From: a virus
Taxonomy: Duplodnaviria > Heunggongvirae > Uroviricota > Caudoviricetes
DNA length: 19,276 nt
Virus record (IMG/VR): IMGVR_UViG_2617270963_000006
Strand: one strand, 5' to 3'
A program made the position numbers and the translations under genes. Under the pieces are notes generated by a model. It was not told the DNA's origin and did no database searches. It was given only the letters and a program-made list of their open reading frames with translations. Below, in pieces: positions 1 through 16,416 of the stretch. The stretch's first letter is position 1. Every line of letters begins with the position of its first letter.

Positions 1-324
1 CTTTTTCCAGAGGCGGTCGAACTCCGCCTTCGCAAAATAAGCGGAAGCCTGGCGAAGGATATCGTTACTGCGGCGCAGTTCACGATTTTCACGTTCCAGC
101 TCTTTCAGACGCTGACGTTCAGCGGTGGTGAGCCCTCCATCACCGCCCCCGGTATCCCGCTCATGCTGGCGAACCCAGACACGCAGAGTCTCCGGCGTAC
201 AGCCAATCTTTGGAGCAATGGAACAAATTGTCGCCCATTGTGAGTCATATTCGCTCTGACTTTCCAGAACCATACGGACTGCCCGTTGACGGACTTCGGG
301 GGAAAAACGAGTATTTTTAGTCAT
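1..324 (-). CDS. IS3-family transposase OrfA (108 codons; stop codon lies just outside the window)
   Basis: Minus-strand translation from ATG at 322-324 gives [108 protein letters not shown], an HTH/leucine-zipper OrfA typical of IS3-family elements. Absent from the ORF track because it has no in-window stop. Confidence 0.8.
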
Positions 325-378
325 CCTGTTTACCTCTTTCTCAGGAAGTTTAGTCTCCAGGATTCCCGGGGCGGTTCA
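1..378 (-). mobile_element. IS3-family insertion sequence, IS629/IS1203-like, copy A (partial; body continues left of window). Terminal inverted repeat ends at 378.
   Basis: Reverse complement of 340-378 reads TGAACCGCCCCGGGAATCCTGGAGACTA, followed by an RBS and the transposase OrfA start. The same 14-nt terminus occurs at 18868 on the plus strand. Confidence 0.8.
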
Positions 379-1812
379 GTTTTCCCTGGCTTTATTGAGT
401 TCCTCCCTCAGTTCCTGGTATTTCGTTTCTACAGATGAGACATTTTCCAGTGATTGCGTGTCCTCATTATGTTTAACTGGAATTTCTTCCACTGATTCAG
501 GCGCTGCCTGTTCATTAGCCATTGTGTCCGATGTTTGTTGCTTTTCTTCATCGCCATGTTTTCCTTCTGCTGTTCCGCGCTGCGGCATCGGTGCTGATGA
601 GCGACCGCAGGCAATTTCCACGATTTCCGGATCCGGGTTAGCGTGATCGGTTTCGGTCAACACTTTGTTGAGATATTCAGTCACGCGTGCCGGGATGGCC
701 TCAATGCCGATTGGTGCTTCTTTCACGGAAGCCACCACAATGGCGCGGGAATAATCCAGCCCACCGGGCATGGCGATAAATTTGTCGCGAAAAACAGAAA
801 AGGGCGGCTTATTCTCTGACACGATTTCTTCAACGCGTTTTGCGTGTGCTGGGTGCAGGTTATAAATATCCACATCCATTGAACGGGCCAGAACGCCGGT
901 GGCTACATCTCGTGCGAGTGATGTCTTATCATGTTTGAATCCTTCACCACGATCGGTAATATTTCCGCCGCCAGCGTTAGCACCGGAAGGCGTACGGGTA
1001 ATGCCTGAAACATAATTTCCGTTCTGCCATTCTTTTGTCAGCAGGCCCTGATCAAGGTAGTCAGTTTTCATCCAGGTGGAAATGAACTTGTCGAATTCAG
1101 CCGGGCTGATGCGATGATTTGCAGAGTGGGGGAATGCTTTCCCTACAGATTCAGCCAGGCGACTAAGGTGATAGTTCGTCAGTTTATCCAGTTCATGATG
1201 CGCGGCGCGCACAGCAGTAAGCAGGCTCTGAAGGTAACTGTCCTCTGTGTCCATCTCCATACGGATCACGTTATTGCGTTGTTCTGGTGTGGCATGATGC
1301 CGGTATTTTCCATCTTCATCTTTGCTGAATAAGAAGAGGTGAAGGAAGCGATGAGTAAGGCTCAGAGTGGCGACGGGAATTTCACACTCAGAACAGTCAT
1401 CGTCGCTGTCCGGGGATTCGTTTTTCTCCACATCATCCGGAATAGTTCCGTCCGGGTCATCGTTGTCATCGCCAGCAGTTGTGGCATCTTCACCGTTGAT
1501 GTTGTCATTGAAGGGTATAGCCATCATGGTGATGCCATCTTCCCCGCCTTTTTCATAGCGGTTGCAGAATTCAGTATCAAACACGCCTTCCGGTGGAAGG
1601 TCATTCACGACGGGGAAATTTACGCGAACGGGTTTTTTGAAATCATCCTCGTCGTAGCCTGCATCGTCCATGGCTGCAATGCAGCGGGAAACTGCGACAG
1701 AAAGTTTTCTGGCATCAGCCCAGAAAAAACCGCCTTTGATGCCAAGGCGTTTTCTGACTTTATCGTTTTTTGCTTCGCAGTGTAGTGCAAAAGTCTGTTT
1801 ATCAGCGCTCAT
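376..1812 (-). CDS. hypothetical phage early protein, 478 aa, with a strongly acidic D/E-rich segment; C-terminus probably truncated by the IS insertion
   Basis: Long ORF in the track with ATG start and GAGG about 11 nt upstream. Its stop codon TGA is the first three bases of the IS terminal repeat (376-378). No family recognised. Confidence 0.55.
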
Positions 1813-1919
1813 TGTATTTAAACCTCTGGCTGGATTAGAATTAGAGGCCCTTTGTCTGATTTCTCCGAATACGGTGACGCAGGGAGAAATCCGGTAGCCT
1901 GCGCTGCCGGATTTTTATT

Positions 1920-2306
1920 TCAGTGGAAGGTTGCCTGGTTTGCTGTTTTGTGAGTTGTTTTTCCCTTTTCGTGCTGGCATTCAGAGCAGTCGCACTCAGA
2001 ATTTTCTCTTGCAAATTCAAGAGCCTGCGCCAGTGTATGGATTTGTTGTGCTCCAATGTTGCTTCTGACGACTTCACATGCAGCATGAATATATGGGCTT
2101 GGTGTTTTGCCATTTAACCCACATGAAACCAAACGACTGTCTTTATATTCGTTATTTCCAACTTCTGTAAGCACTGAAAAAGAAAATACAAAGTCGATTT
2201 TGTATTCTTTGCATATTTTACTGATGCGTTCTGCAATTTCTTTGAGTTCATTTATTGCATCAGGACTGGTTTCGGAAAATATTTCATTTTGCGCAAGTTC
2301 TTTCAT
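1920..2306 (-). CDS. hypothetical protein, 128 aa, C-terminal Cys cluster (CDCSEC), in an AT-rich segment
   Basis: ORF track; ATG start; weak RBS; same strand as the early-left operon. Confidence 0.4.
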   Translation of the reverse strand: MKELAQNEIFSETSPDAINELKEIAERISKICKEYKIDFVFSFSVLTEVGNNEYKDSRLVSCGLNGKTPSPYIHAACEVVRSNIGAQQIHTLAQALEFARENSECDCSECQHEKGKTTHKTANQATFH

Positions 2307-2379
2307 TTTGATTTTTCCGTGATTGATAATTAATGCGGTTTTTATTTCGGCAGATATGGAAGGTGTATTTTATTACTCG

Positions 2380-2601
2380 TCACAACGACTCTGCTTTTAC
2401 GGGTAAGCCATCGCGCCCGATGAAAACTTTAATCATGCAGTCGGTAATGCATGTTTTTGTTGTGAAGTTACGAATATAGAGTTTTCTCTTTTCAATATTG
2501 TTTGCTGAAGCGATATATGTCCGACCTTCATGAAGAACATAATCGCCAGGCGTCACGCACTGACGTGGTATTTCATCAGTTCCGAAGTGATGAGCAATCA
2601 T
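2380..2601 (-). CDS. hypothetical small protein (about 73 aa from the internal ATG; the ORF extends to a GTG at 2619)
   Basis: ORF track 2380-2619. The ATG at 2599-2601 is preceded by GGAGA with a 5-nt spacer. Confidence 0.3.
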
Positions 2602-3058
2602 AATTATCTCCATTTTCACAAATGAACTTTGTTGATGCGGTGCCTGGTGCCTCCAGGTGGCGTTAACCAGTTAACAATTAACGCCGGGTCAGGGGACGAT
2701 GACTTTCCGTGACATCCTGTCGGTTTAACTGTTCCGCGTGCGCTGAGCCGCATTCACCGCATCACAAAATTCACTTTAAAAAGGGCGGACATCAGCAATC
2801 GGCAAACCGATATCCGCCAAGGGTTACACACAGCAATGTTGTTATTCACAACCGGAAGCGCACGGTCGAAGAAATCTAACGACAATCCTTCTATGGGAAA
2901 GAGTCTTCGCCTCGCGCTTTCGTGTAGTACCCTGGCTTTTCAGGGTAATGTCTGTTCAGTAAAGTGAGAGTGCCGGAACTCACCCGTGTCCGGCGCACGA
3001 TCTCCACCTCACCCGTGGAGAACTCCTCAACTACAAACCCCGTAAGGAGAGTGAATTT

Positions 3059-3268
3059 ATGACACAAGAAGAAAAAGTGATGTTTCTGATGCGGCTGGCT
3101 GTCGATACCTACAATACACAATTCAGGGAGAAAGATATACCTCAAAAGGCAGTTCCTGCCGCGGTAGATAAGGGCGGTGCTATTGCCGTATTTTACGATG
3201 CATTTGAATCATTTTTTGATGAAAAACTCGACGCTGTTAGCGACTTCGGAACATCGAGTAATAAATAA
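3059..3268 (+). CDS. hypothetical small protein, 69 aa, opposite in orientation to the surrounding early-left genes
   Basis: ORF track; strong RBS AAGGAGAG 7 nt before the ATG; its 3' end overlaps the 3' end of the convergent minus-strand gene 3237-3596 by 32 nt. Confidence 0.4.
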   Translation: MTQEEKVMFLMRLAVDTYNTQFREKDIPQKAVPAAVDKGGAIAVFYDAFESFFDEKLDAVSDFGTSSNK

Positions 3269-3596
3269 CGTTCATTACGGTTCTTAAACAACAATCAGTG
3301 GGCTTGATGTTGTTCTTTTCAAGCTCACTTGCCATCACTTCCATTATTCTTGCGCTTACACGAATTATTTGGTGGCTGTAAGCGACGCAACTATCGCTGA
3401 TATTGCTGTTTATTTCTATTACTTCATTTTCACTGGCGGCGCTAAATTTGGATATGCCGTTTCCATTGTCCTGTTTCAGTGCTGTTTCCGCTATCCGGAT
3501 GCGTTCCTGCGTTGCGGAATTTGGGCTAAGTCGATAAACCTGTCTGGCATCTTCCAGAAGCAGGGCGATAATGTGCTTCAGTTCTGTTTCATTCAT
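3237..3596 (-). CDS. hypothetical protein, about 119 aa
   Basis: ORF track 3237-3617 (TTG); the internal ATG at 3594-3596 has GGAG with a 6-nt spacer. Confidence 0.45.
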   Translation of the reverse strand: MNETELKHIIALLLEDARQVYRLSPNSATQERIRIAETALKQDNGNGISKFSAASENEVIEINSNISDSCVAYSHQIIRVSARIMEVMASELEKNNIKPTDCCLRTVMNVIYYSMFRSR

Positions 3597-3627
3597 AGTT
3601 AACTCCGGTAGTTGCAATTTATTAATA

Positions 3628-3813
3628 TCAGGCGGTCAGCTTTTTAAGCTTCTGAACTGCTTTATTCATTTCATCCATACAGTCGATGAATTCGTCCAGT
3701 TTAAGCTGCATTTTTCCGGCGGCCTGAAGAATTTCAAGTTTTAAGGGCGCAAGTTTTTTGTTGTAATCGACGCAGGTTATTAACTCGCGGCCAGTAATAT
3801 TTTGGCTTGGCAC
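3628..3813 (-). CDS. hypothetical small protein, 61 aa (GTG start); overlaps 3734-4018 in another frame, so it may be the downstream half of a frameshifted gene
   Basis: ORF track; coiled-coil-like translation; no good RBS. Confidence 0.25.
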   Translation of the reverse strand: MPSQNITGRELITCVDYNKKLAPLKLEILQAAGKMQLKLDEFIDCMDEMNKAVQKLKKLTA

Positions 3814-4018
3814 GAGATCCGGGTCTTGAACCTACACAAACTATATAGCTCTCTTCTTTCCTCGGAAGGCCAGGTGCATCTAGCAGACGGCCTAGTTCGA
3901 ATTTTTTTACGTTGACACCAGGAGGAATCACCTCGACGATAAACCCGATTTTTACCTTCGTTACACCGTTTGATGAGCTTGACCATTTAACTTCATCGTT
4001 CAATTTGAACTTCATCAT
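3734..4018 (-). CDS. hypothetical protein, about 94 aa, immediately downstream of N
   Basis: ORF track 3734-4078; tandem ATGs at 4016-4018 and 4013-4015 preceded by GAGG; starts just after the N stop codon. Confidence 0.4.
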   Translation of the reverse strand: MMKFKLNDEVKWSSSSNGVTKVKIGFIVEVIPPGVNVKKFELGRLLDAPGLPRKEESYIVCVGSRPGSRAKPKYYWPRVNNLRRLQQKTCALKT

Positions 4019-4023
4019 TAACC

Positions 4024-4329
4024 TCAATCGTAATAAGCCGGAATTGATTTTCCGCGTTGTTTCTGGCGGCCTGAGCAAGTCACACCCATTTCACTGCGTG
4101 GTTTGCGGTAGTAAATACGGTTCTGTTTACTCTCGACTTCTTCTGCCTTCTTGCAGCGAAGGCTTCCGAGTGATACTGCTTTGTCTGCTCCGACGCAACC
4201 AGAGATCTTTAGCGCAATCTTCCGTGTCAGTCTTTCACTACTGCGCCGCTCTGCAATAAGTTCTTCCCTGCGAGCTTTATAGCGGCTTTTTGCCGTACCT
4301 TTGGATTCTTTCCAGATTATGGTTACCAT
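4024..4329 (-). CDS. N: N-like transcription antitermination protein (about 101 aa)
   Basis: Arg-rich N-terminus (SRYKARREELIAERRSSER) and a C-terminus (YYRKPRSEMGVTCSGRQKQRGKSIPAYYD) closely resembling the lambda N C-terminus. ATG at 4327-4329 with AGGAGA 5 nt upstream. Sits downstream of a nut-like site and leftward of cI. Confidence 0.7.
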   Translation of the reverse strand: MVTIIWKESKGTAKSRYKARREELIAERRSSERLTRKIALKISGCVGADKAVSLGSLRCKKAEEVESKQNRIYYRKPRSEMGVTCSGRQKQRGKSIPAYYD

Positions 4330-4439
4330 GATGGTCTCCTTTAAGTGGCTTTGGTGTATGACGCGTCGAGGTGTTTTTCTTCTCGATCGCGGCCTTGCAA
4401 CTGAAATTCGCGTCATCCCCAAAACCACTTAGATTTTGG

Positions 4440-4479
4440 TCTCAACGGTTAGGTTGAGAGTCCATCAATGTTAAAGAGC
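4440..4479 (-). promoter_or_regulatory. nutL-like site: boxA (GCTCTTTAACATTG) followed by a boxB hairpin (TCTCAAC-CTAACC-GTTGAGA) on the minus strand
   Basis: Read directly on the minus strand. The same boxA string recurs downstream of cro at 6087-6101. Confidence 0.5.
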
Positions 4480-4662
4480 CGGCCAATCTGTTCCGTTTGG
4501 CTTCCAGCGTCCTGCTGTTGAATTGAAGATGACCTAAGTTATCTGGTTGCGCAATAACTATATTTATCATTTTATGAAAAACGTTATAAATGACTGATAA
4601 CAAAAATATTTTATTTTTTGTGGTATCCGCGTGATATTTTCAAGGGGGAAAGGCTGATTGTT

Positions 4663-4884
4663 ATGGGTGATTGCATGTTAATCGAAGGGGAATTTGGTGT
4701 GTTGCACCAGCGGGTAGTCGAAATTCTAGGGGTGTCGTTGCTTGAGGTTATTGCTACTGGGGAAGCTATTTCAGCAGATGCTATTGCGGGAATGATCCGA
4801 GTGCTTCACCATGATGAATTGGATGATCTCGCTGTGAAGTTAGCTATAGATGTGTTACTTCAGGATATGCGACTGTGTAATTAA
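4663..4884 (+). CDS. hypothetical small acidic protein (about 73 aa) between nutL and cI, opposite in orientation to both
   Basis: ORF track 4618-4884; ATG at 4663 preceded by AAGGGGGAAAGG; AT-rich upstream region; hairpin immediately downstream. Confidence 0.4.
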   Translation: MGDCMLIEGEFGVLHQRVVEILGVSLLEVIATGEAISADAIAGMIRVLHHDELDDLAVKLAIDVLLQDMRLCN

Positions 4885-4917
4885 GTAAATAAAACCCGGC
4901 ACTGGAGCCGGGGGATT
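4885..4917 (-). terminator. rho-independent terminator for leftward (cI) transcription
   Basis: Hairpin CCCGGC-ACTGGA-GCCGGG at 4895-4912; on the minus strand it is followed by TTTTATTTA. Confidence 0.5.
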
Positions 4918-5036
4918 TAGAAATGGCATTTTATGAATTGGCTACTTGGCGAATGGTTTACCATCGGTGGTATTGAGCACAATAAAAGGCCGTTCTTCGT
5001 GAGTGTTCTTATAGCAAAAGTTCAGTTGGAGTCTGA

Positions 5037-5744
5037 TTACCAGCTATGTGATGACCAGAACACTCGCCCTATGATTCTTACGTTTTTGTAGAATTCTTCT
5101 CTGTTCATTACTTCATCAGGATACTCTTCGCGGTTTATCGATCTGATAATTACCGATGTTGGCGTGGCTATGAGCGTTTTTACCCTTAACAAATCAGCTT
5201 GGCAAATTGCATATGTTTTACCATCCCTGATGCTCGTATCTTGCGTGTTTACCCCCACCACATCACCATCATGGAGTGTTGGCTCCATGCTTTGCCCAAC
5301 AACCCTGACCAACTTTGCCGCTTTTTCTGGAACTCCCATTTTTTTCAGGTAATAGCGCCTAAAAACTAGAGAGAATTCTGCGGACTCCTCCAATGCACAA
5401 CTTCCTCCGCCAGCTGAAAGTGAAATATTTAGAAGGGGGAGCGCAACAAATTCGTCATTATCATTTTGATGATCATCCCAGGCGATAGCTTTTAAAGATG
5501 ATTCCCGAGCATTAGATGGCTCTTCTGCGCTCTGTGGTCTCATTGACCCTATACCAGAGCTTAGCCATTCAGGGCGAACTCTTAACGCGTTGGCTAATTC
5601 GACCATTTTACGTGATCCGGTTGTTTTACCAGATGACATCTTTTGTATGGCTGGTTGTGATACCCCCACCATGTCTGCAAGTTGTGCTTGTGACAACCCG
5701 GCTGAACTCATGGCGGCATTTAGTCTTTCTGCGAATGTTTTCAT
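5037..5744 (-). CDS. cI: CI-type prophage repressor (N-terminal HTH, C-terminal S24/LexA-like autocleavage domain)
   Basis: The translation has an N-terminal HTH (LSQAQLADMVGVSQPAIQKM), a possible Ala-Gly cleavage site (SAGGG) and the S24 motif GQSMEPT. It is divergent from the cro-like gene. Confidence 0.85.
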   Translation of the reverse strand: MKTFAERLNAAMSSAGLSQAQLADMVGVSQPAIQKMSSGKTTGSRKMVELANALRVRPEWLSSGIGSMRPQSAEEPSNARESSLKAIAWDDHQNDNDEFVALPLLNISLSAGGGSCALEESAEFSLVFRRYYLKKMGVPEKAAKLVRVVGQSMEPTLHDGDVVGVNTQDTSIRDGKTYAICQADLLRVKTLIATPTSVIIRSINREEYPDEVMNREEFYKNVRIIGRVFWSSHSW

Positions 5745-5854
5745 ACCTGTAATCTATAACCACGGTTATCAAAAGTAAAACAACAATTGTTATTGCTCTG
5801 GTGTATAACTCATGTTATTTTTGGTTATGCTTTATTTGCTGTAGAGGTATGCTC
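5745..5854. promoter_or_regulatory. OR-like operator/promoter region between cI and cro, with 14-bp palindromic sites of form ATAAC-N4-GTTAT
   Basis: ATAACCACGGTTAT at 5756-5769 and ATAACTCATGTTAT at 5805-5818. A weaker match (ATAACTATATTTAT, 4554-4567) lies in the putative OL region. Confidence 0.5.
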
Positions 5855-6079
5855 ATGAATTTAGTGATTCAGCGAGCCTTGAATATTGTTGGCAGTCAAA
5901 AACGACTTGCAGCTGATTGCGGCGTATCACAGCCCGCTGTTCATAAATGGTTGCGAGGCGGAAAAGTTTCTCCTGAAAAAGTTTTCGCTATCGTTAATGC
6001 CACCAATGGTCAGGTTAAGGCTTACGAAATTCGCCCGGACTTACCGCACCTGTTTCCTCATCCGAACCAGGCTGAATAA
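5855..6079 (+). CDS. cro: Cro-like HTH regulator (74 aa)
   Basis: ATG at 5855 with GAGG 7 nt upstream; HTH motif (QKRLAADCGVSQPAVHKWLRG); divergent from cI. Confidence 0.65.
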   Translation: MNLVIQRALNIVGSQKRLAADCGVSQPAVHKWLRGGKVSPEKVFAIVNATNGQVKAYEIRPDLPHLFPHPNQAE

Positions 6080-6086
6080 GTAACAC

Positions 6087-6127
6087 CGCTCTTTAACATT
6101 GCTGGTCGTTCACCTCTAACAGGGTGA
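6087..6127 (+). promoter_or_regulatory. nutR-like site: boxA CGCTCTTTAACATTG plus boxB-like hairpin TCACC-TCTAACAG-GGTGA
   Basis: Read directly; boxA is identical over 14 nt to the nutL boxA. Confidence 0.5.
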
Positions 6128-6195
6128 GCAAACATCAGTGGCAAACCCATTGGGGATTGCCGCTTAACCCCATATCAATATAGGAAAATTAACAA

Positions 6196-6492
6196 ATGTC
6201 ACAAACAAGTTACAGCAAACTGTCACAGCGCGATATCGATCGCGCTGAAACGGATTTACTTATCAACCTGTCAGCTCTGACGCAAAGGGGACTGGCGAAG
6301 ATGATTGGCTGCCATGAATCGAAGGTCAGTCGTACCGACTGGCGATACATCGCGGCGATTTTATGCGCGTTCCAGATGGCATCTGATATCAGTCCGATCA
6401 GCCGGGCTTTCCAGCATGCCATTAACGTTCATGCAAATAAAAAACGTCCGGTTGGGGCCGGACGTTCTGAGCAAATCCTGATGAACATCTGA
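6196..6492 (+). CDS. cII: CII-like transcriptional activator (98 aa)
   Basis: C-terminus NKKRPVGAGRSEQILMNI resembles the lambda CII C-terminus (NKKRPAATERSEQIQMEF, recalled); central HTH; position after cro and nutR. Confidence 0.7.
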   Translation: MSQTSYSKLSQRDIDRAETDLLINLSALTQRGLAKMIGCHESKVSRTDWRYIAAILCAFQMASDISPISRAFQHAINVHANKKRPVGAGRSEQILMNI

Positions 6493-6562
6493 TATTCAGG
6501 CAGGGCATGGAGCAATACACGGGAATAATTCTGCCACATCTGGAAGAATTTCGCCAGCAACA

Positions 6563-6621
6563 ACACCAACCGCAGCAGCCTGAAGCCGATTGGGTTAACC
6601 CGGAGATACCGGGACCGTCTG
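6563..6621 (+). repeat. iteron-like direct repeat, copy 1 (about 58 bp)
   Basis: ACACCAACCGCAGCAGCCTGAAGCCGATTGGGTTAACCCGGAGATACCGGGACCGTCTG; a near-identical copy follows at 6653-6712. Confidence 0.6.
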
Positions 6622-6652
6622 TGAAGATGTGCAGTCACACCAATGTGCAGTC

Positions 6653-6712
6653 ACACCAACCGCAGCAGCCTGAAGCCGATTGGGTTAACCCGGGAGATAC
6701 CGGGACCGTCTG
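6653..6712 (+). repeat. iteron-like direct repeat, copy 2 (one extra G relative to copy 1)
   Basis: Direct comparison with 6563-6621. Confidence 0.6.
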
Positions 6713-6745
6713 CGGTATGGAGTAAATCTTGTATGCGAGGGGACT

Positions 6746-7828
6746 ATGCGTAATTACGCAACAATTTCACCTCAGTTCTGGTTAGGCGATACAGGGCGAA
6801 AACTCAGGAAGTCTGGTCCGGAATGTATGGTAGTGGCGTTGTATATGATGACCTCGCCTCATTCCAATATGCTGGGCCTTTATTACCTGCCTGTTTTGTA
6901 CATTGCTCACGAAACCGGACTTGATCCTGAAGGGGCTTCTAAGGGGCTTCAAATGGCTTGCGAGGCTGGTTTTTGCAGCTATGACCATGATTCTGAGGTT
7001 GTATGGGTGCATGAAATGGCAGCATGGCAGGTTGGTGAATCGCTGAAACCTGGCGATAACCGTTGTGCTGGGGTAAGAAATGAATATTCCGCGTTGCTGG
7101 AAAATCCTTTTTTATCATCCTTTTATGATAGATATAAGGATGATTTCCACCTGGATGTCAGACGTGAATCATGTCGGAAAATTGAAGCCCCTTCAGAGCC
7201 CCTTTCAAGCCAAGAACAGGAACAGGAACAAGAACAGGAAAGGGATAAAACCCTTCTGGTCCATGGCGAAAAAATCGCCACGGACCCACAGGGGGATTTT
7301 TGTCCTGTTCTGACTGAACGTCCAGGACCAGCTGGCACGACACCGGAAGCAGATTCCGGGCGTTGTGTGCAGCAGGTGCTGATCGTCGAACCGGAGCAAC
7401 AACGCCAACCGCAGCAGCCTGAAGCCGATTCCGCGATGAGCGGGAAGCCGATTGGGTTAACCCGGGCGATGCCGGGACCGTCTGCGGGACGAGTTGATTA
7501 TCCTGACGTGTTCGAACGGGTCTGGCGTGAATATCCGCATCGGGCAGGGTCAAACCCGAAGAAATCCGCGTTCAATGCCTGGAGGGCCAGATTACGCGAA
7601 GGGGTGTCACCGGATGTCGTGCTGGATGGCGTGAGGCGTTACGCAAGATACCTGGAGGCTACCGGGAAAGCGGGAACTGAATTTGTTCAGCAGGCATCGA
7701 CGTTTTTTGGCCCGAACAGGAATTTCGAAAATCCGTGGTCGCTGCCGAAGGCTGGCGCAGTCAGCCTGCGTTGCGTGAATCACATTTCTGAACCGGACAC
7801 CGAAATTCCGCCGGGTTTCAGGGGGTAA
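6746..7828 (+). CDS. phage replication initiator / replisome organiser (360 aa) with a DnaT-like C-terminal tail
   Basis: ATG at 6746 with GAGGGG upstream. The C-terminal residues SEPDTEIPPGFRG match the C-terminus of E. coli primosomal protein DnaT as recalled (SEPDSQIPPGFRG). It contains a third iteron copy and sits directly upstream of a DnaC-like gene. Confidence 0.7.
   Translation: MRNYATISPQFWLGDTGRKLRKSGPECMVVALYMMTSPHSNMLGLYYLPVLYIAHETGLDPEGASKGLQMACEAGFCSYDHDSEVVWVHEMAAWQVGESLKPGDNRCAGVRNEYSALLENPFLSSFYDRYKDDFHLDVRRESCRKIEAPSEPLSSQEQEQEQEQERDKTLLVHGEKIATDPQGDFCPVLTERPGPAGTTPEADSGRCVQQVLIVEPEQQRQPQQPEADSAMSGKPIGLTRAMPGPSAGRVDYPDVFERVWREYPHRAGSNPKKSAFNAWRARLREGVSPDVVLDGVRRYARYLEATGKAGTEFVQQASTFFGPNRNFENPWSLPKAGAVSLRCVNHISEPDTEIPPGFRG
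7211..7240 (+). repeat. hexanucleotide (GAACAG/GAACAA)n microsatellite encoding a (QE)n linker inside the replication initiator
   Basis: CAAGAACAGGAACAGGAACAAGAACAGGAA translates to QEQEQEQEQE. Confidence 0.6.
7405..7486 (+). repeat. iteron-like repeat, copy 3, interrupted by a 20-bp insertion or partial duplication, inside the initiator gene
   Basis: CCAACCGCAGCAGCCTGAAGCCGATT ... ATTGGGTTAACCCGGGCGATGCCGGGACCGTCTGCG; the internal GAAGCCGATT is duplicated. Confidence 0.55.
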
Positions 7829-7834
7829 TCAGCC

Positions 7835-8575
7835 ATGAAAAACATTTCGACAGGAGGGATTCTTGAACGGGTGCGCCGTCTGGCACCACCGCACGTGGCA
7901 GCACCGTTCCGGACGACCGACGAATGGCGGGAATGGCAACTGGCTGAGGGCCGTAAGCGCAGCGAGGAAATTAACCGCCTGAATCATCAGGCGCGGGTTG
8001 AAAAAATCCTGAACCGTGCGGGCATCCAGCCGCTTCACAGGAAGTGCTCATTCGGGAACTACCGGGTGCAGAACGACGGTCAGCGCCATGCTCTGAGCCA
8101 GGCGAAATCCATTGCCGATGAATTGATGACCGGTTATACAAACTTCGTGTTCAGCGGGAATCCGGGAACCGGAAAAAATCATCTGGCGGCGGCTGTGGGT
8201 AATCGTCTGCTGAATGCCGGTAAATCCGTGATAGTGGTCACCGTGGCGGATGTGATGAGCGCGTTACATGCCAGCTATGACGACGGACTGTCAGGGGAAA
8301 AATTTTTGCGTGAACTGTGCGAAGTGGACCTCCTGGTTCTTGACGAAATTGGCATCCAGCGTGAGACGAAAAACGAGCAGGTGGTACTGCACCAGATTGT
8401 TGACCGCCGGACGGCATCACTGCGCAGTGTCGGGATGCTGACAAACCTGAATCATGCCGCAATGAGCAAGCTTCTTGGTGAGAGGATTATGGACCGGATG
8501 ACCATGAACGGTGGTCGTTGGGTGAATTTTAACTGGGAGAGCTGGCGGTCAAACGTTGGACGTCAGGGTATGTGA
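7835..8575 (+). CDS. DnaC-like helicase loader (AAA+ ATPase, IstB/DnaC family), 246 aa
   Basis: Walker A GNPGTGKNHLAAAVG and Walker B LLVLDEIG in the translation; strong overall resemblance to E. coli DnaC; abuts the stop of the initiator gene. Confidence 0.9.
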   Translation: MKNISTGGILERVRRLAPPHVAAPFRTTDEWREWQLAEGRKRSEEINRLNHQARVEKILNRAGIQPLHRKCSFGNYRVQNDGQRHALSQAKSIADELMTGYTNFVFSGNPGTGKNHLAAAVGNRLLNAGKSVIVVTVADVMSALHASYDDGLSGEKFLRELCEVDLLVLDEIGIQRETKNEQVVLHQIVDRRTASLRSVGMLTNLNHAAMSKLLGERIMDRMTMNGGRWVNFNWESWRSNVGRQGM

Positions 8576-8600
8576 GAATTTTTGACGAGGTAAATTTTCG

Positions 8601-9371
8601 ATGGAAACCGTATTGCATGCACTGAAAGCGATGGGAAAAGCCAATTCTGTTGAACTGGCGGCGCGGCTTGATATCAGCCGTGAAGAAGTTCTCAACGAAC
8701 TGTGGGAGCTCAAAAAAAATGGCGTTGTTGATAAAACGGGTCACACCTGGTTTCTGGCTGTCGAAGGTGAAGCCGGGGTAACCGAAGGGCAGGCACTGCA
8801 ACCTGAAGCGCCGGATGTGGTAACCGAAGAGGTCGCTCCAAAAGTTACCGCAGACATGATGATTGAGTTTATCGATCAGGATGGGGCTAAAACGTGTGAG
8901 GAACTGGCGGGGGAGTTCGGTGTCAGCACTCGTAAGGTTGCTTCCACGTTGGCGGTGGTAACAGCAACGAGACGCCTGGTACGCGAGATCAGCAACGGAA
9001 AATTCCGTTACAAAATGCCTGATGTCGAAAACGGCGATTTGAGCGCTTTATCATCGCAGAATAAGCAATCACACCATGACGCAGAAAACAGCGCGGCAGG
9101 CGATGAAATGAATCGTTTTCCGTTGGCATCAGAGAGCACGGCAAAGGCCAGTACAGATGAGTTTATCCGAGAAGTTCCATCATTCACCGAAAAATCTGCC
9201 AGTTCGGTGATGCTTCCATCGCTGCATGCTGCCAGTCGAGAACTTCGTCGCGCCAAAAAACAGGTCCAGAAGTGGGAGCGAGTCTGCGCCGCGCTGCGGG
9301 AGCTGAACAAGCACCGGGATATTGTTCGACAGATTGTCGATTCATCCGGTCGTATTGTGTCGGAAAAGTGA
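8601..9371 (+). CDS. hypothetical phage protein, 256 aa, N-terminal winged-helix-like region
   Basis: ORF track; ATG with an upstream GAGG; same strand and tight spacing with neighbours. Confidence 0.55.
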   Translation: METVLHALKAMGKANSVELAARLDISREEVLNELWELKKNGVVDKTGHTWFLAVEGEAGVTEGQALQPEAPDVVTEEVAPKVTADMMIEFIDQDGAKTCEELAGEFGVSTRKVASTLAVVTATRRLVREISNGKFRYKMPDVENGDLSALSSQNKQSHHDAENSAAGDEMNRFPLASESTAKASTDEFIREVPSFTEKSASSVMLPSLHAASRELRRAKKQVQKWERVCAALRELNKHRDIVRQIVDSSGRIVSEK

Positions 9372-9386
9372 TTGCCGGAGGCGCTT

Positions 9387-9782
9387 ATGGCGAAACCTTT
9401 TACACACGAACAGCGGGAAGAACTGAAGGCACGAATTATCGGATTGGTACGCAAAAATGAACGCATGACGATATCGCAACTGGAGAGAGCGACGGGAGCA
9501 GGCTGGCATTCAGTCAGACGTTGCCTTGTGGATGTACTGGCTTGTGGCGATTTATACATGTCCGGTAAATACGGTGTTTTTGCATCAGAACAGGTGTATC
9601 GCGTATGGCGTAAGACACCGGAGAAAACAACTGACCAGACATTGATTCGAAAGTTACCAGACGGAGAAATTCGCCGCTACGATAGACGCCTGAACATAAT
9701 TTGTCGTGAGTGCCGCCAGAGCGAAGTTATGCAGCGTGTGCTGGCTTTCTATCAGGGGAATTTTCAGGAGGCGGTACTGTGA
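9387..9782 (+). CDS. hypothetical phage protein (about 131 aa), HTH-like segment
   Basis: ORF track 9372-9782 (TTG); the ATG at 9387 has GGAG with a 6-nt spacer. Confidence 0.5.
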   Translation: MAKPFTHEQREELKARIIGLVRKNERMTISQLERATGAGWHSVRRCLVDVLACGDLYMSGKYGVFASEQVYRVWRKTPEKTTDQTLIRKLPDGEIRRYDRRLNIICRECRQSEVMQRVLAFYQGNFQEAVL

Positions 9783-9838
9783 GTGAATTAGCTATCAGGC
9801 TTCAATTGTCGCTGGCATTCGCATCAAAGGAGAATGAG

Positions 9839-10423
9839 ATGACCACTTTTACAAAAGAGCAGTTAATCAGTCATGTTAGTGAAAATGTAAAGGCGATGAA
9901 ATTTGCAGTAAAACAGACAGCATTCAAAAATTCTCTCGAGGCAATTGAGTTGGATTTAGCACTGGCCCTTGTTGCTCAGGCTTCGCTGGAAGCAGAGCCC
10001 GTGCTTTATATGAATCGATTTACCGGAAAGACATTCTCACTGGAAGAGCAACCTGGTGCTGATAAGGAACCGGAAATATACGTGCCGCTATATGCTGCCC
10101 CGCCAGACAGCGCCGCCATGCTTCAGGCTGGAAACTTTCGGGAAAAGAAGGGTTCGTCAACCAATAATTTTCGGGAAATCTCGGAAACGTCAACCAACCA
10201 TCCGGTAACTCTGGATGGTTGGATAAGCTGTAGTGAGCGAATGCCGGATGACGGTCAGCACGTAATTATTTTATGTGATGGCGCATTCGTTCTTTATGCG
10301 CAATATCGAGACGGTGAGTTTTTTGATGTAGTCCGTGATGGTGATGAATTTTTCGAAACACAGAGCCGCAATGTAACCGACTGGATGCCGCTACCAGAAC
10401 CGCCGCAGGAGGTGCGCCAATGA
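9839..10423 (+). CDS. phage protein with a DUF551-type C-terminal domain (Eaa/Ead-like), about 194 aa
   Basis: ATG at 9839 with AAGGAGAA upstream; C-terminal motif VTDWMPLPEPP, which I recall as characteristic of DUF551 phage proteins. Confidence 0.55.
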   Translation: MTTFTKEQLISHVSENVKAMKFAVKQTAFKNSLEAIELDLALALVAQASLEAEPVLYMNRFTGKTFSLEEQPGADKEPEIYVPLYAAPPDSAAMLQAGNFREKKGSSTNNFREISETSTNHPVTLDGWISCSERMPDDGQHVIILCDGAFVLYAQYRDGEFFDVVRDGDEFFETQSRNVTDWMPLPEPPQEVRQ

Positions 10424-10503
10424 TCTGGCCTGAAGCCTTTGCAATTACAGGCGTTGCTATAGCTATTGATTTTTTAGTATATGTTATTTGTCGGTGGGGG
10501 TAA
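10420..10503 (+). CDS. tiny hydrophobic peptide (27 aa, MIWPEAFAITGVAIAIDFLVYVICRWG), predicted single transmembrane helix
   Basis: Not in the ORF track (under 60 aa). ATG overlaps the upstream stop (ATGA); AGGAGG 7 nt upstream. Confidence 0.35.
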   Translation: MIWPEAFAITGVAIAIDFLVYVICRWG

Positions 10504-10538
10504 AAACGTTCGCCGGGATTAACACCAAAGGAGGGAAT

Positions 10539-10643
10539 ATGTCGGATGATATATCACTGGCAATGGAAGGTGCGCTGGCTGTTATTGCTGTTGTGGGCGT
10601 TTACTGCCTGGTTGTGTTTTTGATGGATCGACTAGGGAACTGA
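10539..10643 (+). CDS. tiny hydrophobic peptide (34 aa, MSDDISLAMEGALAVIAVVGVYCLVVFLMDRLGN), predicted single transmembrane helix
   Basis: Not in the ORF track. AAGGAGGG immediately upstream of the ATG. Confidence 0.35.
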   Translation: MSDDISLAMEGALAVIAVVGVYCLVVFLMDRLGN

Positions 10644-10774
10644 ATTCATTACGATATGGGAATTCCCATATCGGGTAAAAACGGTTTGCGGTAAAGCGAG
10701 AGTTAAGCAGAATTGCTGCGGGTGCTTGAGGCTGTCTGCCTCGGGCATGCCACCGTAAGGCAGACAGAGAAAAA

Positions 10775-10860
10775 CCCCAGTTAACATTACGCGTCCTGCA
10801 AGACGCCTAACATTAATCTGAGGCCAATTTCATGCTAGACACATGTAGGTTAGCCTCTTA
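10775..10860 (-). ncRNA. sok: candidate Sok-like antisense RNA of the hok/sok module (position approximate)
   Basis: Inferred from hok-family organisation: the antisense regulator lies opposite the hok leader. No promoter or terminator was pinned down. Confidence 0.3.
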
Positions 10861-10888
10861 CGCGCCGAAAGGCAAGGAGAAGCAGGCT

Positions 10889-11044
10889 ATGAAGCAGCAA
10901 AAGGCGATGTTAGTCGCCCTGATCGTCATCTGTATTACCGTCGTAGTGACGGCACTGGTAACGAGGAAAGACCTCTGCGAGGTACGAATCCGAACCGGTC
11001 AGACGGAGGTTGCTGTCTTCACAGCTTACAAACCTGAGGAGTAA
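10889..11044 (+). CDS. hok: Hok/Gef-family type I toxin (51 aa)
   Basis: MKQQKAMLVALIVICITVVVTALVTRKDLCEVRIRTGQTEVAVFTAYKPEE is nearly identical to chromosomal Hok homologues (HokD/RelF as recalled). In-frame upstream extension from ATG 10832 (track ORF 10832-11044). Terminator follows. Confidence 0.85.
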   Translation: MKQQKAMLVALIVICITVVVTALVTRKDLCEVRIRTGQTEVAVFTAYKPEE

Positions 11045-11111
11045 GAGACCAGGCGAGGGAGAAATCCCTCGCCACCTCTGATGTGTCAGGCATCCTCAAC
11101 GCACCCGCACT

Positions 11112-11134
11112 TAACCCGCTTCGGCGGGTTTTTT
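11112..11134 (+). terminator. rho-independent terminator after hok
   Basis: CCCGC-TTCG-GCGGG followed by TTTTTT. Confidence 0.7.
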
Positions 11135-11253
11135 CACGTACTGTGGTTGTGAATACGATTGGTATTAGGCTATGCTAACAACATTAGCCTGACTAATTTT
11201 GTATTGACTTGATTTTTGTTAAAGAACAGGACGGAGAAGTAAGGGTACACCCA

Positions 11254-11433
11254 ATGAGCTACGCACTAAAAAAACACCCGCGATTGACTATTCCCCCTCG
11301 CGATAAAAGCGTTGTGGCAGCTCCGCGCCCGGCTATCGATGAAAATTGCACTCATCGTGAGCAGGTGAAAAATGCTTTCGATTTCGGTTTTTCTCGTTAC
11401 GAGAAGGCAATGGAAGAACTTTCAAAAGTGTAA
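11254..11433 (+). CDS. putative antitoxin of the Doc-family module (59 aa)
   Basis: Small ORF immediately upstream of the Doc-like toxin, separated by about 18 nt; ATG at 11254 (track ORF begins at a TTG at 11209). Not recognisably Phd-like. Confidence 0.5.
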   Translation: MSYALKKHPRLTIPPRDKSVVAAPRPAIDENCTHREQVKNAFDFGFSRYEKAMEELSKV

Positions 11434-11451
11434 TGATGGGTATTGTGCTCT

Positions 11452-11937
11452 ATGGCTGAGATTGTTGAAGGAGTGCACTACCTTTCGTTTGATGATCTTA
11501 CCGAAATTAATCGCCTTTTAATTGAGCTTCAAACACCAGATGAACCTGTTAGTGTGCTGAGTGTTGATAATTTAAGTTCTTCTCAGTCTCGTCCCAGCAT
11601 GGTTCGATGGTATGAACAGACTAATGACATGTTTGTACTGGCATCAGTATTGATTGAAAGTCTGATTCAGAATCATCCATTTGCTAATGCAAACAAACGA
11701 ACAGCTATGATGGCTGGTTATGTCTTCTTGTTGTTGAATGGCTATGAGTTAACAGCACCAGGCGATGAAATCGTGGAAATGGCAGAGGGACTGGCCTGCA
11801 AAACCTATACTCGAGAAGATCTCGAGAACTGGTTGTGTTATTGGTCTCGTGCGTATGACAGCCGGGAATTATGTAAAACAGGCGCAACTATTGTTTTGTA
11901 TGAAACTATCAAGCTTAAAATAGAACAGCAAAACTAA
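11452..11937 (+). CDS. doc: Doc (death-on-curing) / Fic-fold toxin, about 161 aa
   Basis: Catalytic motif HPFANANKR fits the Doc signature HxFx(D/N)(A/G)NKR. Start is uncertain: ATG at 11452 or TTG at 11443. Confidence 0.75.
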   Translation: MAEIVEGVHYLSFDDLTEINRLLIELQTPDEPVSVLSVDNLSSSQSRPSMVRWYEQTNDMFVLASVLIESLIQNHPFANANKRTAMMAGYVFLLLNGYELTAPGDEIVEMAEGLACKTYTREDLENWLCYWSRAYDSRELCKTGATIVLYETIKLKIEQQN

Positions 11938-11953
11938 AGGTGCTTCTAATGAA

Positions 11954-11976
11954 AATCCGCTTCGGCGGGTTTTGTT
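11954..11976 (+). terminator. rho-independent terminator after the Doc module
   Basis: CCGC-TTCG-GCGG followed by a T-rich tract. Confidence 0.55.
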
Positions 11977-11987
11977 GTATTGGAGTA

Positions 11988-12305
11988 TCATGATATTACT
12001 TGGATCCCGTTTTTCTCTACGACTGAAAGAAGGCGAAGAGCGGCACCTCCCGGCCGTTTTACACCACGTTCCCAGTCTGATATCAGGTTTTTACTGACGT
12101 TGAGGTATCTGGCAAAAACAGGTTGAGACAGATGCTCTCGTTCGCGCAGTGCACGGATCCTTTCCGGAGACATTACCGGCGCTGGCTGGAGACAAGTTTC
12201 ATCGAATTCTCGCATAGTCTGTTTCGTTACTGCGCCGATATCATGAAGCGATTCCATCATTTCATGTACGGATGCAAGCGCATCACTGCGGTAATTTTTA
12301 CTCAT
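11988..12305 (-). CDS. HTH (XRE-type) antitoxin, HigA/MqsA-like, 105 aa
   Basis: C-terminal HTH (LSQPVFARYLNVSKNLISDWERGVKRPGGAALRLL); GGAGG 7 nt upstream; lies directly downstream of a RelE-like toxin ORF on the same strand. Confidence 0.65.
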   Translation of the reverse strand: MSKNYRSDALASVHEMMESLHDIGAVTKQTMREFDETCLQPAPVMSPERIRALREREHLSQPVFARYLNVSKNLISDWERGVKRPGGAALRLLSVVEKNGIQVIS

Positions 12306-12359
12306 TGGGTACCTCCGTAAACTGACCCTGTAGAATCAGTTGTGCCAGTTGTTCATCTG

Positions 12360-12668
12360 TTAGATTGAGTACGTGAGGAGCCCCTTCCGAAATGCACTTT
12401 CCTCAGTAGCGGTTATATTTTCACGTTCATTTTTTGCGTATGCATATACGAAAAAGGCCCTTGTGCCGACGCGATAGAAAATGATTGTGCGATAACCGCC
12501 AGATTTGCCGCCACCGACTCGTGGCAGACGTTGCTTGATAACGCCGTTACCCAGGTTTGCTGAGATAAGCCCGTTATCAGCCTGTTTAACAATTTCGCGC
12601 AGTGACTGGTCGGATATTTTGTTTTTGTGTGCAAATCGCTCAAACCAGGCGTTTTTAAAAATGCGCAT
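12360..12668 (-). CDS. RelE/ParE-superfamily toxin (HigB-like; toxin-first arrangement), 102 aa
   Basis: Segment GGGKSGGYRTIIFYRVGTRAFFVYAYAKNEREN is typical of RelE/HigB-like killer proteins; followed by the HTH antitoxin. Confidence 0.65.
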   Translation of the reverse strand: MRIFKNAWFERFAHKNKISDQSLREIVKQADNGLISANLGNGVIKQRLPRVGGGKSGGYRTIIFYRVGTRAFFVYAYAKNERENITATEESAFRKGLLTYSI

Positions 12669-12772
12669 TTTTTTGTTCCGTTATTAATGTATAACACATA
12701 GTATTACATTGCGTAGGGATCTGCAATGCCATCAGTTTGACAACGTCGCGTATCCGGGATTATATTCATCGC

Positions 12773-12851
12773 ACGCCAGCAAAATCTGGCGTCGGGATTA
12801 GGAACCCCGGATAGAAACCGCGACAGAGACACGCCGCGAGCGTGTTTTTTA
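12773..12851 (+). ncRNA. candidate small RNA (about 80 nt) with its own promoter and intrinsic terminator, carrying a TTAGGAAC motif
   Basis: Promoter TTGACA (12737-12742), 18-nt spacer, TATATT (12761-12766). Terminator ACACGC-CGCGA-GCGTGT plus T-run at 12829-12851. No ORF. Confidence 0.3.
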
Positions 12852-13013
12852 TTGTCGTATGCACACGCACATCTGAATTATGGTGGGGCGTATAGGGGAG
12901 CTGAAAAGCTCGCCGGTTGGTTTCCCGGTAGTTCCTAACCCTGTACGTCTCGCCACCCGATGATTAGGAACCTGACGGTGGTGATAGTTTAGAAACCACT
13001 CGAGGGCGTCATT

Positions 13014-13685
13014 ATGACAACTCAAGTTTCTGTTGAAACACTCTCCACGATTACTTACAAGCAGATCCCCGTTATCACTACCGAACTTTTGGCGCACCTT
13101 TACGGCACAGAAGCTATTCGTATTCGCCAGAATCACCACGAAAACAAAGGTCGTTTCATTGAGGAAAAACACTTCTTCAAACTTGAAGGTGAAACTTTAC
13201 GTGAGTTCAAGCACAGAGTAGCTTTTAACTACTCTGTGAAAATTGCCCGTAACGTTCGCTCCCTCATCCTATGGACAGAACGCGGCGCAGCCCGTCACGC
13301 AAAAATGCTCGAAACTGATCAGGCGTGGGAGGTATTCGAAAAACTGGAAGACTGCTATTTCAGCCAGGGAAAAACAGCACCAACCGAACAGCAGCCGCAG
13401 ATTCAGCCACAATTCACAGCCGAAGAAATCATCCTCCTTTGCTACATGCAGCTCTGGATGGAAAAAGCCCAGGACCTCAGCAAACACCTGTATCCCATTA
13501 TGAAAGAGCTGAACTCCTCATACACGAACAAGCTGTATGACATTGCGTTTGAGACCATCTACATGGTGACGAAGAACAGAGACGCGCTACTAAGGGAGGT
13601 AACACGTCTCGACATGTCAAGTTCCATTATCCAGCGGGCCATGCCAATGCTGAAAAGCCTGCGGGCAAGACAATTTGAATTCTGA
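13014..13685 (+). CDS. phage antirepressor-like regulator (ORF6N/Rha-type N-terminal domain), 223 aa
   Basis: N-terminal segment (ITYKQIPVITTELLAHLYGTEAIRIRQNHHENKGRFIEEKHFFKLEG) resembles ORF6N/Rha antirepressor domains; GAGGG RBS; terminator follows. Confidence 0.6.
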   Translation: MTTQVSVETLSTITYKQIPVITTELLAHLYGTEAIRIRQNHHENKGRFIEEKHFFKLEGETLREFKHRVAFNYSVKIARNVRSLILWTERGAARHAKMLETDQAWEVFEKLEDCYFSQGKTAPTEQQPQIQPQFTAEEIILLCYMQLWMEKAQDLSKHLYPIMKELNSSYTNKLYDIAFETIYMVTKNRDALLREVTRLDMSSSIIQRAMPMLKSLRARQFEF

Positions 13686-13691
13686 AACTAA

Positions 13692-13713
13692 AGGAGCTTC
13701 GGCTCCTTTTTTG
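13692..13713 (+). terminator. rho-independent terminator
   Basis: AGGAGC-TTCG-GCTCCT followed by TTTTTT. Confidence 0.6.
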
Positions 13714-13739
13714 TTGGGAAAATCCAGTGAGAGGGAATA

Positions 13740-14150
13740 ATGAACCAGACTATCTTCCTCCGAAGTAAGCAGCAGCAACAATTTGCCATTAACGCCATCC
13801 TTGCAACAACTCTCGATAAAGACAAACCCGTTACGATCCGCATCACCGATTACAAGCGGAATCTCGATCAAAATGCCAAATTTCACGCGATGGTCGCTGA
13901 TATCTCCCGACAGGTTCAGTGGTGCGGCAGATGGCTAAAACCAGAACAGTGGAAAGTTTTGTTAATCAGCGGACATGCCGTGGCTACAAAACAGGAAGCT
14001 GATGTTTTGCCAGGTCTTGAAGGTGAATACGTCAATATCCGCGAAAGCAGTGCGCAGATGAGCGTGAAGCGTATGGCAAGCCTGATTGAGTACACAACTT
14101 CCTGGGCTGTGGAGCAGGGTGTCAGATTTACCGACAGGAGGTATGAATGA
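13740..14150 (+). CDS. ninB: NinB (Orf-family recombination mediator), 136 aa
   Basis: Translation resembles lambda NinB, including the conserved block [27 protein letters not shown]. Confidence 0.85.
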
Positions 14151-14338
14151 GACGACAGCGACGAAGCATTACCGATATAGTCTGTGAAAACTGCAATTAC
14201 CTTCCAACGAAACGCTCCCGAAATAAACCCAGGCCAATCCCCAACGAATCTGATGTAAAAACCTTCAATTATACGTCTCACCTGTGGGATGTCCGGTGGC
14301 TCAGACGTCGTGCAAGATTTAATAGTCACTCCGGATAG
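14147..14338 (+). CDS. ninE: NinE-like small protein (63 aa)
   Basis: Start overlaps the ninB stop (ATGA). Basic Cys-containing peptide ([27 protein letters not shown]...) at the ninE position upstream of ybcO; family assignment from memory. Confidence 0.5.
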
Positions 14339-14358
14339 TTCAATGTACGAGGAATAAG

Positions 14359-14652
14359 ATGATGGCAAACCTACGCAAAGAAGCGCGTGGCAGAGAATGT
14401 CAGGTACGGATTTACGGCGTATGCAATGGCAATCCTGAAACTACAGTTTTGGCGCATTACCGAATAGCTGGAATTTGCGGAACGGGAATGAAGCCAGATG
14501 ACCTGTTGGCTGCATGGGCCTGTAGTGACTGCCATAATGAAATCGATCGCCGTACTCGCATTCTCGACAACAACGACGCCAGACTTTACCACCTGGAAGG
14601 CGTGATCAGGACGCAGGCGATATTGCTGAAGGAGGGGAAGATTAAGTCATGA
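14359..14652 (+). CDS. ybcO: YbcO-like (DUF1364) putative nuclease, 97 aa
   Basis: Conserved Cys/His pattern (CQVRIYGVCNGNPETTVLAH ... CSDCHNEIDRR) as in DLP12 YbcO; GAGGA RBS. Confidence 0.8.
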   Translation: MMANLRKEARGRECQVRIYGVCNGNPETTVLAHYRIAGICGTGMKPDDLLAAWACSDCHNEIDRRTRILDNNDARLYHLEGVIRTQAILLKEGKIKS

Positions 14653-15011
14653 ATGAATATGAGTTTGTGCTTCCCTGGCCGCCGACGGTGAATACCTACT
14701 GGCGAAGACGGGGAAGCCAGTACTACATCAGCGATAAAGGCCAGAAATACCGAAAAGACGTACAGCAAATCATCCGGCAACTCAGATTAGACATTTTCAC
14801 TAAATCACGACTTCGCATCACAATTATTGCTGAACCACCAGACTCCCGCCGTCGCGACCTCGATAACATCCTGAAAGGTTTACTCGACTCTCTTATCCAC
14901 GCCGGATTTGCGGAAGACGACGAGCAATTCGATGACATTCGCGTAATTCGCGGCGTGAAAGTGCCTGGCGGTAGAGTGGGGATAAAAATCACCGAACTGG
15001 AGAACATTTGA
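14649..15011 (+). CDS. rusA: RusA Holliday-junction resolvase, 120 aa
   Basis: LPWPPTVNTYW ... RRRDLDN motifs; start overlaps the ybcO stop (ATGA). Confidence 0.9.
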   Translation: MNEYEFVLPWPPTVNTYWRRRGSQYYISDKGQKYRKDVQQIIRQLRLDIFTKSRLRITIIAEPPDSRRRDLDNILKGLLDSLIHAGFAEDDEQFDDIRVIRGVKVPGGRVGIKITELENI

Positions 15012-15205
15012 TGAATGCTAAAATTCAAACGATACCTGAATTACTGATCTGCACCAGGGGAAATCAGACAGAAGTCGCCAGAATACCGAACTGCAATCGT
15101 GCTACAGTCAGAAAATACATTGATGATAAAGATGCGAAAAAGCACGCCGTCGTCAATGGCGTCCTTATGGTTCATCGCGGATGGGGTAAAGATACTGATG
15201 CGTGA
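15011..15205 (+). CDS. small putative DNA-binding (HTH-like) protein, 64 aa
   Basis: ATG at 15011 with GGAG 8 nt upstream; HTH-like segment [20 protein letters not shown]; its 3' end overlaps the Q start by 8 nt. Confidence 0.45.
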
Positions 15206-15578
15206 TATCCGGCAGGTTCTTGAGCGCTGGGGGGCATGGGCGGTAAATAACTATGAGGATGTTACATGGTCGCCCATTGCTGCCGGATTTAAGGGACTGA
15301 TCCCCGAAAAAGTAAAATCACGTCCACAGTGCTGTGACGATGATGCGATGGTGATATGCGGGTGCATAGCCCGCCTTTACCGGAACAATCGCGATCTGCA
15401 TGACTTGCTGGTTGATTACTACGTGTTGGGGGAGACGTTCATGGCGCTGGCACGTAAGCATGGATGCTCTGATGGAACTATCGGTAAAAAATTACAGAAA
15501 GCGGAGGGCGTGGTTGAAGGGATGTTAATGTTACTTGGTGTCAGACTGGAAATGGACCGATATGCGCAACGCCTCTGA
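15198..15578 (+). CDS. Q: late-gene antiterminator Q (QuuD/phage-82-type), 126 aa
   Basis: [25 protein letters not shown] ... [14 protein letters not shown] motif resembles Q antiterminators of DLP12/phage-82 type; position after rusA. Confidence 0.75.
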
Positions 15579-15709
15579 CAGGAGGCGTTTGCCGTTCACT
15601 ATGTGAAGTGTGTCAATTTGTGAGCGTTATGCTGTTTACTTTATAGTACAGGGACGTAAGAGTTATCTACCTGTTAATAACATATATACAACAATGAACA
15701 GGGGGCAAA
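15579..15709 (+). promoter_or_regulatory. candidate late promoter (PR'-like) / Q-utilisation region
   Basis: Location immediately downstream of Q; plausible sigma70 elements TTGTGA-N18-TATAGT near 15626-15656; no hairpin terminator before the next ORF. Confidence 0.3.
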
Positions 15710-16369: not shown

Positions 16370-16416
16370 AAATCTGCATATCATGATAAGAGTGGTTACA
16401 TTGCCACGCTGCTTAA

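Follow-up and report, generated by a model that had tools for sequence, protein, structure and literature searches.

The window, that is, the whole 19,276-nucleotide stretch of DNA analysed here, was found by exact-protein look-ups to be the entire contig JHDN01000008.1 (19,276 bp) of assembly GCA_000601155.1 from E. coli 1-110-08_S3_C1. Between two terminal fragments of an insertion sequence (IS), it carries the interior of a lambdoid prophage, which shares 98% identity with the prophage integrated at ynfG in E. coli NCCP15648 (Table 1) and its relatives, O104:H4 strains among them. The NCCP15648 prophage adjoins ynfG, ynfH and dmsD, and its recE and nanS-p are both intact. A literature search on the WGS accessions gave no match, and one on the strain name gave incidental mentions only.

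Genes of the interior were assigned from gene and Pfam tables. kilR is the first of the interior genes; it is followed, in this order, by a cI-like repressor, a cro-like gene, cII, replication genes, hok/sok (also an RNA family match), a Fic/Doc-like gene, a pair formed by an HTH and a RelE-like gene, ninB, rusA, Q, and a gene for a DnaD_N protein. Between Q and nanS-p, neither tRNA genes nor stx were found. Four Rfam matches scored above the gathering score, namely sok RNA (beside hok), isrK, C4 antisense RNA and the STnc100 sRNA. In addition, direct repeats of 36-49 nt and AAGGGGCTTC-type inverted repeats were observed inside the 72-aa and 360-aa genes of the replication region; these repeats may represent iterons or an origin.

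Table 1. Positions of the features discussed, in window coordinates unless a locus of another genome is named
Feature	Position	Strand	Remarks
Left-hand IS629 fragment	1-378	-	IS positions 1-378; IRL at 354-378; all 108 orfA codons at 1-324
Truncated recE (exodeoxyribonuclease VIII)	376-1812	-	478 of 690 codons; TGA stop is IS629 bases 1-3
Prophage interior	379-18867	.	18,489 bp
cI-like repressor	5037-5744	-	
cro-like gene	5855-6079		
cII	6196-6492		
Replication-region repeats	6556-6715, 7395-7487, 6930-6952 / 7182-7204		
Replication genes	6746-8575		
hok/sok	10720-11044		
sok RNA	10720-10894		Rfam
Fic/Doc-like gene	11452-11937		
HTH plus RelE-like pair	11988-12668	-	
isrK	12773-12850		Rfam
C4 antisense RNA	12876-12960		Rfam
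Q	15198-15578		
DnaD_N protein gene	15710-16369		
STnc100 sRNA	16708-16913		Rfam
Truncated nanS-p-like SASA esterase gene	17135-18907	+	590 aa; phage part 577 codons and two bases, of 636 codons
Right-hand IS629 fragment	18868-19276	-	IS positions 902-1310; IRR at 18868-18892; orfB 3′ end at 18910-19276
Left IS629 deletion	L023 11929-13808		1880 bp; recE 3′ 639 nt, gam, bet and exo codons 1-54 (exo 5′ end) lost
Right IS629 deletion	L013 13161-14997		1837 bp; nanS-p 3′ end, DUF1378, DUF826, holin, lysozyme (endolysin) and start of a 37-aa ORF lost
Frameshift regions of CP116919.1	L014 14514-15720; L030 6564-7270		Rz, phosphatase gene and cI-like repressor gene

IS629 fragments at the two contig ends

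Both IS bodies lie on the minus strand. The left-hand fragment codes for an OrfA of the IS3 type that carries an HTH_Tnp_1 domain, and the stop codon of this orfA is located just beyond the window edge. The right-hand fragment codes, at 18910-19275, for 121 aa at the C-terminus of an rve/DDE OrfB (rve, rve_3; positions 262-369 of the NCBIfam IS3 profile NF033516). A repeat finder paired 354-378 with 18868-18892 as a 25-nt inverted repeat with 92% complementarity: CCCGGGGCGGTTCA at 365-378 is the reverse complement of TGAACCGCCCCGGG, and TGAACCGCCCCGGG is read directly at 18868-18881. A first-pass annotation, made from the window's letters, had described the same IS3-family terminus as facing inward at 378 and at 18868. 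The shared TGAACCGCCCCGGG and the minus-strand bodies were borne out, but the two termini are not the same: the end at position 378 is IRL (TGAACCGCCCCGGGAATCC, then orfA; also written …GGGAATCC), whereas that at position 18868 is IRR (TGAACCGCCCCGGGTTTCC, adjoining the orfB stop; also written …GGGTTTCC). That opposite IS ends face inward is required by two copies of the same orientation. IRL and IRR agree at 23 of 25 positions and both begin with TGAACCGCCCCGGG, that is, they are imperfect terminal inverted repeats starting with 5′-TG. Since the two fragments share no IS positions, they cannot be aligned to each other.

Window positions 229-378 are 100% identical to copies that RefSeq calls ‘IS3-like element IS629 family transposase'. 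Two complete copies, each of 1310 bp and in direct orientation, are present in the finished GenBank chromosome CP116919.1; identity to these full copies is 99.2% for the left-hand fragment (compared at the same site) and 98.8% for the right-hand one, and the latter furthermore equals the IS end of the sibling contig JHDL01000039.1, with no differences over 409 nt. In each CP116919.1 copy, orfA (108 aa; HTH) is overlapped in the -1 frame by orfB (296 aa; DDE/rve), and there is an ALIL frameshift pseudoknot, which scored 116 bits in the full copy at the left-hand site. When this full-length copy was compared with IS3-family copies of RefSeq genomes, the identity was 99.4%. Most of the full-length IS was found in 3,043 of the 5,426 finished E. 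coli genomes. The terminal repeats, the orfA/orfB layout, the near-identity to copies so named in RefSeq and the length of 1310 bp all fit the initial designation of the element as IS629-like, which is thus upheld.

Two phage genes are cut by these copies. Intact recE encodes 690 aa in the relatives L001 and L023, and intact nanS-p encodes 636 aa in L001, L013 and L015. As had been noticed from the letters alone, the 478-aa early-left ORF ends on a TGA that is the first triplet of the IS, and the nanS-p-like ORF runs 12 codons into the other copy; both details were confirmed, with IS629 supplying one base of codon 578 and then the 12 codons and the stop of the 590-aa ORF. The exact 478-aa recE protein was found on 11 contigs. 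The exact 590-aa protein is known from the window contig only, because five bases (8913, 17701, 17768, 17785 and 18470), four of them in nanS-p, are private to this contig and differ from those in the sibling colonies and in every other contig of the lineage. The private nanS-p bases probably stem from reads of paralogous nanS-p copies that were mixed during assembly.

Junctions and deletions in a finished chromosome and in sibling colonies

Both window junctions are present in CP116919.1 (loci L030 and L014). Window positions 1-12310, including the left junction, match this chromosome at 99.87%; the right junction is identical, with one mismatch over the last 1 kb of phage sequence preceding it, and the spacing between the two IS copies, calculated from the record coordinates, is 18,491 bp versus 18,489 bp in the window. 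Read in the direction of the window, the left copy is flanked as GGACAT-IS-GTTTTCC and the right copy as CATTAA-IS-AGACGCC. No target duplication was found at either copy, the flanking CAT, GTT, TAA and AGA being mutually unlike.

The far side of the left copy carries exo′ (171 aa from Met55), DUF4222, the integrase gene, ynfG, ynfH and dmsD, and that of the right copy carries Rz, a phosphatase gene, the genes for the small and large terminase subunits and portal. Comparison with intact relatives, L023 for the left side and L013 for the right, defined the intervals that each copy replaces (Table 1). At both sites, therefore, the arrangement is that of an IS-adjacent deletion, in which the IS is retained, its flanks are non-contiguous in the intact relatives and target duplication is missing. 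The two replaced stretches are of near-equal size, which may be a coincidence.

Some features of CP116919.1 itself were also recorded. Frameshifts affect Rz, the cI-like repressor gene and the lipopolysaccharide core heptose(II)-phosphate phosphatase gene, and the 5′ third of nanS-p contains a divergent mosaic patch (L014 11400-12150, corresponding to window 17155-17881) of ~91% identity between near-identical flanks. The patch and the frameshifts could have arisen by recombination with a paralogue or by genuine decay, or they could be errors of long-read sequencing.

The far-side junctions were then located in the window's own strain and its siblings. The Rz side has no usable junction-specific ORF, and the contig JHDN01000034.1 (51.5 kb) of the window's assembly was reached through a 90-aa annotation-specific protein; on this contig portal, terminase and Rz are followed by 447 nt of the IS629 IRL end, and its junction between Rz and the IRL is identical to that of CP116919.1. 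For the exo side, the junction-specific 171-aa exo protein from Met55 is annotated in both 1-110-08_S3_C1 and C2. The variant in 1-110-08_S3_C1 is the form with the L023 residues, and the CP116919.1 version had no match in the protein collection. Furthermore, the sibling contig JHDL01000039.1 (221 kb) runs from 489 nt of the IS629 IRR end through exo′, DUF4222, int, ynfG and ynfH to dmsD, with an identical junction. All four IS-phage junctions hence exist in the window's strain.

The same interior was also found on the sibling-colony contigs JHDL01000008.1 and JHDM01000005.1, in an ENA isolate assembly, in Logan assemblies and on several gut metagenome scaffolds, and all of these contigs likewise stop inside the IS. 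Searches of the 5,426 finished RefSeq E. coli genomes with a 300-bp query for each of the four junctions gave no exact match to any of them; the full-coverage matches were two-piece only, with IS629/IS1203 located at a distance of 33-143 bp in exo genes that belong to other prophages (O157, O103 and O121). These searches also yielded no intermediate in which one of the four sites carries a simple insertion and its duplication.

Interpretation of the two IS629 copies

It is highly probable, in our judgement, that the window, one complete short-read contig, stems from a defective lambdoid prophage integrated at ynfG, in which two direct, full IS629 copies each mark a local deletion, the prophage being collinear outside them. 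The assembler would have halted at both ends inside the multicopy 1310-bp IS629. The left copy would connect codon 478 of recE with codon 55 of exo, and the right copy would connect codon 578 of nanS-p with a site immediately upstream of Rz; outside the copies, collinear order would be kept, with int and the attachment site on one side and Rz, terminase and portal on the other. The IS ends would be paired in this collinear manner by analogy with CP116919.1, the one finished genome of the same lineage. The first-pass annotation correctly reported that int, recombination, lysis and structural genes are absent from the window, but as a sign of loss from the genome this absence does not hold, since the missing int, lysis and structural genes are accounted for by a contig boundary inside a repeat and not by a genomic deletion of that size.

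These records directly show the four junctions, the missing target duplications, the intervals deleted and the collinear order beyond the copies. Each deletion may have arisen by either of two routes, which yield the same product. One would be a transposase-driven deletion beside the IS, possibly aided by the IS-excision enhancer (IEE); the other would require a further IS629 to insert close by, after which the two direct copies would recombine with each other. IS629-associated genomic deletions and IEE-dependent IS-adjacent deletions, from a few nt to >40 kb, are reported in PMC9943667, with Ooka 2009 and Kusumoto 2011 as the works cited there; models are discussed in bioRxiv 10.1101/2023.06.07.543989. 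As a consequence of the two deletions, of which one takes out most of the recombination module and the other holin and endolysin, the prophage is presumably no longer able to lyse the cell or to use its Red/RecE recombination module.

If the two copies were independent simple IS629 insertions, each should have its own 3-4 bp duplication and the interrupted gene should continue beyond it. Phage genes do carry on past both copies, and IS629 can enter this recE simply, as illustrated by an independent 1310-bp insertion with the 4-bp duplication GAGG in locus L028 (11846-13155; NCTC record UGEC01000002.1), located 83 bp upstream of the window's recE junction and in opposite orientation. However, exo codon 55 and sequence upstream of Rz stand at the far flanks where the rest of recE and of nanS-p would be expected, 1880 and 1837 bp have been lost, and the four flanks are all unlike, so that this reading is barely conceivable; it is already refuted by the far-side junctions in CP116919.1, JHDN01000034.1 and JHDL01000039.1. 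Matching target duplications with intact genes beyond them are found at neither copy, and the truth thus lies between the two alternatives that the first-pass annotation had set against each other, namely two independent insertions and a deletion or composite structure. Of its proposal of an IS-mediated rearrangement or an IS-bounded remnant, the rearrangement agrees, in a limited sense, with the missing duplications and with the ~1.85 kb missing per copy, whereas the prophage is not IS-bounded, as it continues beyond both copies.

The remnant could alternatively be viewed as a composite transposon, in which an 18.5-kb cargo of regulatory and toxin-antitoxin genes is mobile as a unit and the rest of the prophage is gone. 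Two same-orientation IS copies around a cargo do form the formal architecture of a compound transposon, yet the outer flanks are neighbouring parts of the same prophage in their original order and orientation, the sequences at these flanks (GGACAT before the left copy and AGACGCC after the right one, hence CAT and AGA) form no duplication, and int, terminase and portal are still present. Moreover, in every contig or genome that bears any of the four junctions, the surroundings are those of the ynfG prophage, and a second context did not come to light. We therefore regard such a unit as very improbable, and the mobility suggested initially is not sustained, given the missing flanking duplication and the single prophage context.

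A small chance is left to the ends being paired the other way in this isolate, with exo′-IS629-Rz in the chromosome and the window as a segment that has been excised or moved elsewhere and is closed by a single IS copy. A short-read assembly graph would look the same for this and for the collinear order, and the block does carry phage replication genes; on the other hand, collinear order is seen in the one finished genome that has these junctions, and contigs with the A and B junctions occur in several independent assemblies and metagenomes, as is expected for stable chromosomal inheritance. A related scenario starts from the content of the block between the IS629 repeats, which comprises immunity, replication and toxin-antitoxin functions (cI, cro, cII, O/P-like, hok/sok, Fic/Doc-like and RelE-like). 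In part of the population, a circle of ~19.8 kb might be looped out between the direct repeats and maintain itself like a lambda-dv plasmid; this would be very surprising, and nothing in the present analysis supports it.

IS629 in this prophage family and in known systems

Other members of the prophage family show further decay. In L026 (4987-11250; UGBU01000002.1), recE is fused to the integrase gene and a group II intron is located close by, and IS1 lies inside a kinase gene in L029 (5317-6014). On JAASXI010000064.1 and ~11 similar contigs (L015 13902-13977), nanS-p is intact and an IS629 IRR end is located inside DUF826. This L015-type prophage is a close relative, with six mismatches over 13.2 kb, and its IS position falls inside the stretch that is deleted in the window type; the IS629 there may have been inserted independently, or it may mark an intermediate stage of a nested series of deletions. 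The family is a repeated target of IS629. In O157, prophages house 62% of the IS629 copies (PMC3271280).

The decay of lambdoid prophages by IS629 insertion and deletion is already well known, and the two deletions described here provide a further example of a lambdoid prophage that IS629 has crippled, its holin, its endolysin and its Red/RecE recombination module being lost. The lineage is found again in several isolates from the human gut and in metagenomes, and the case has little importance beyond annotation. For annotation, it illustrates that IS fragments at contig ends can be misread as an IS-bounded island, and that structural inference from repeats at contig ends first needs long-read or cross-contig evidence.

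With their terminal repeats, length of 1310 bp, orfA/orfB organization and prophage location, the two copies resemble IS629 (isoforms IS1203 and IS3411) of the IS3 family, known from E. coli and Shigella prophages. They differ from simple IS629 insertions in that both stand without a 3-4 bp target duplication, which indicates that the copies are not simple insertions and is not an argument against their identity as IS629. The small IS629-associated deletions of O157 and the IEE-dependent deletions are alike in that IS629 lies beside missing prophage DNA, target duplication is missing and genes are inactivated. Unlike in those cases, the IS is retained here instead of being excised, so that no microhomology joint can be read. 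Compound transposons with direct IS repeats, such as Tn9 with IS1, share only the architecture of two copies flanking a cargo: in contrast to the Tn9 type, no duplication surrounds the unit, it has no second context, and its flanks are the collinear remnants of one prophage.
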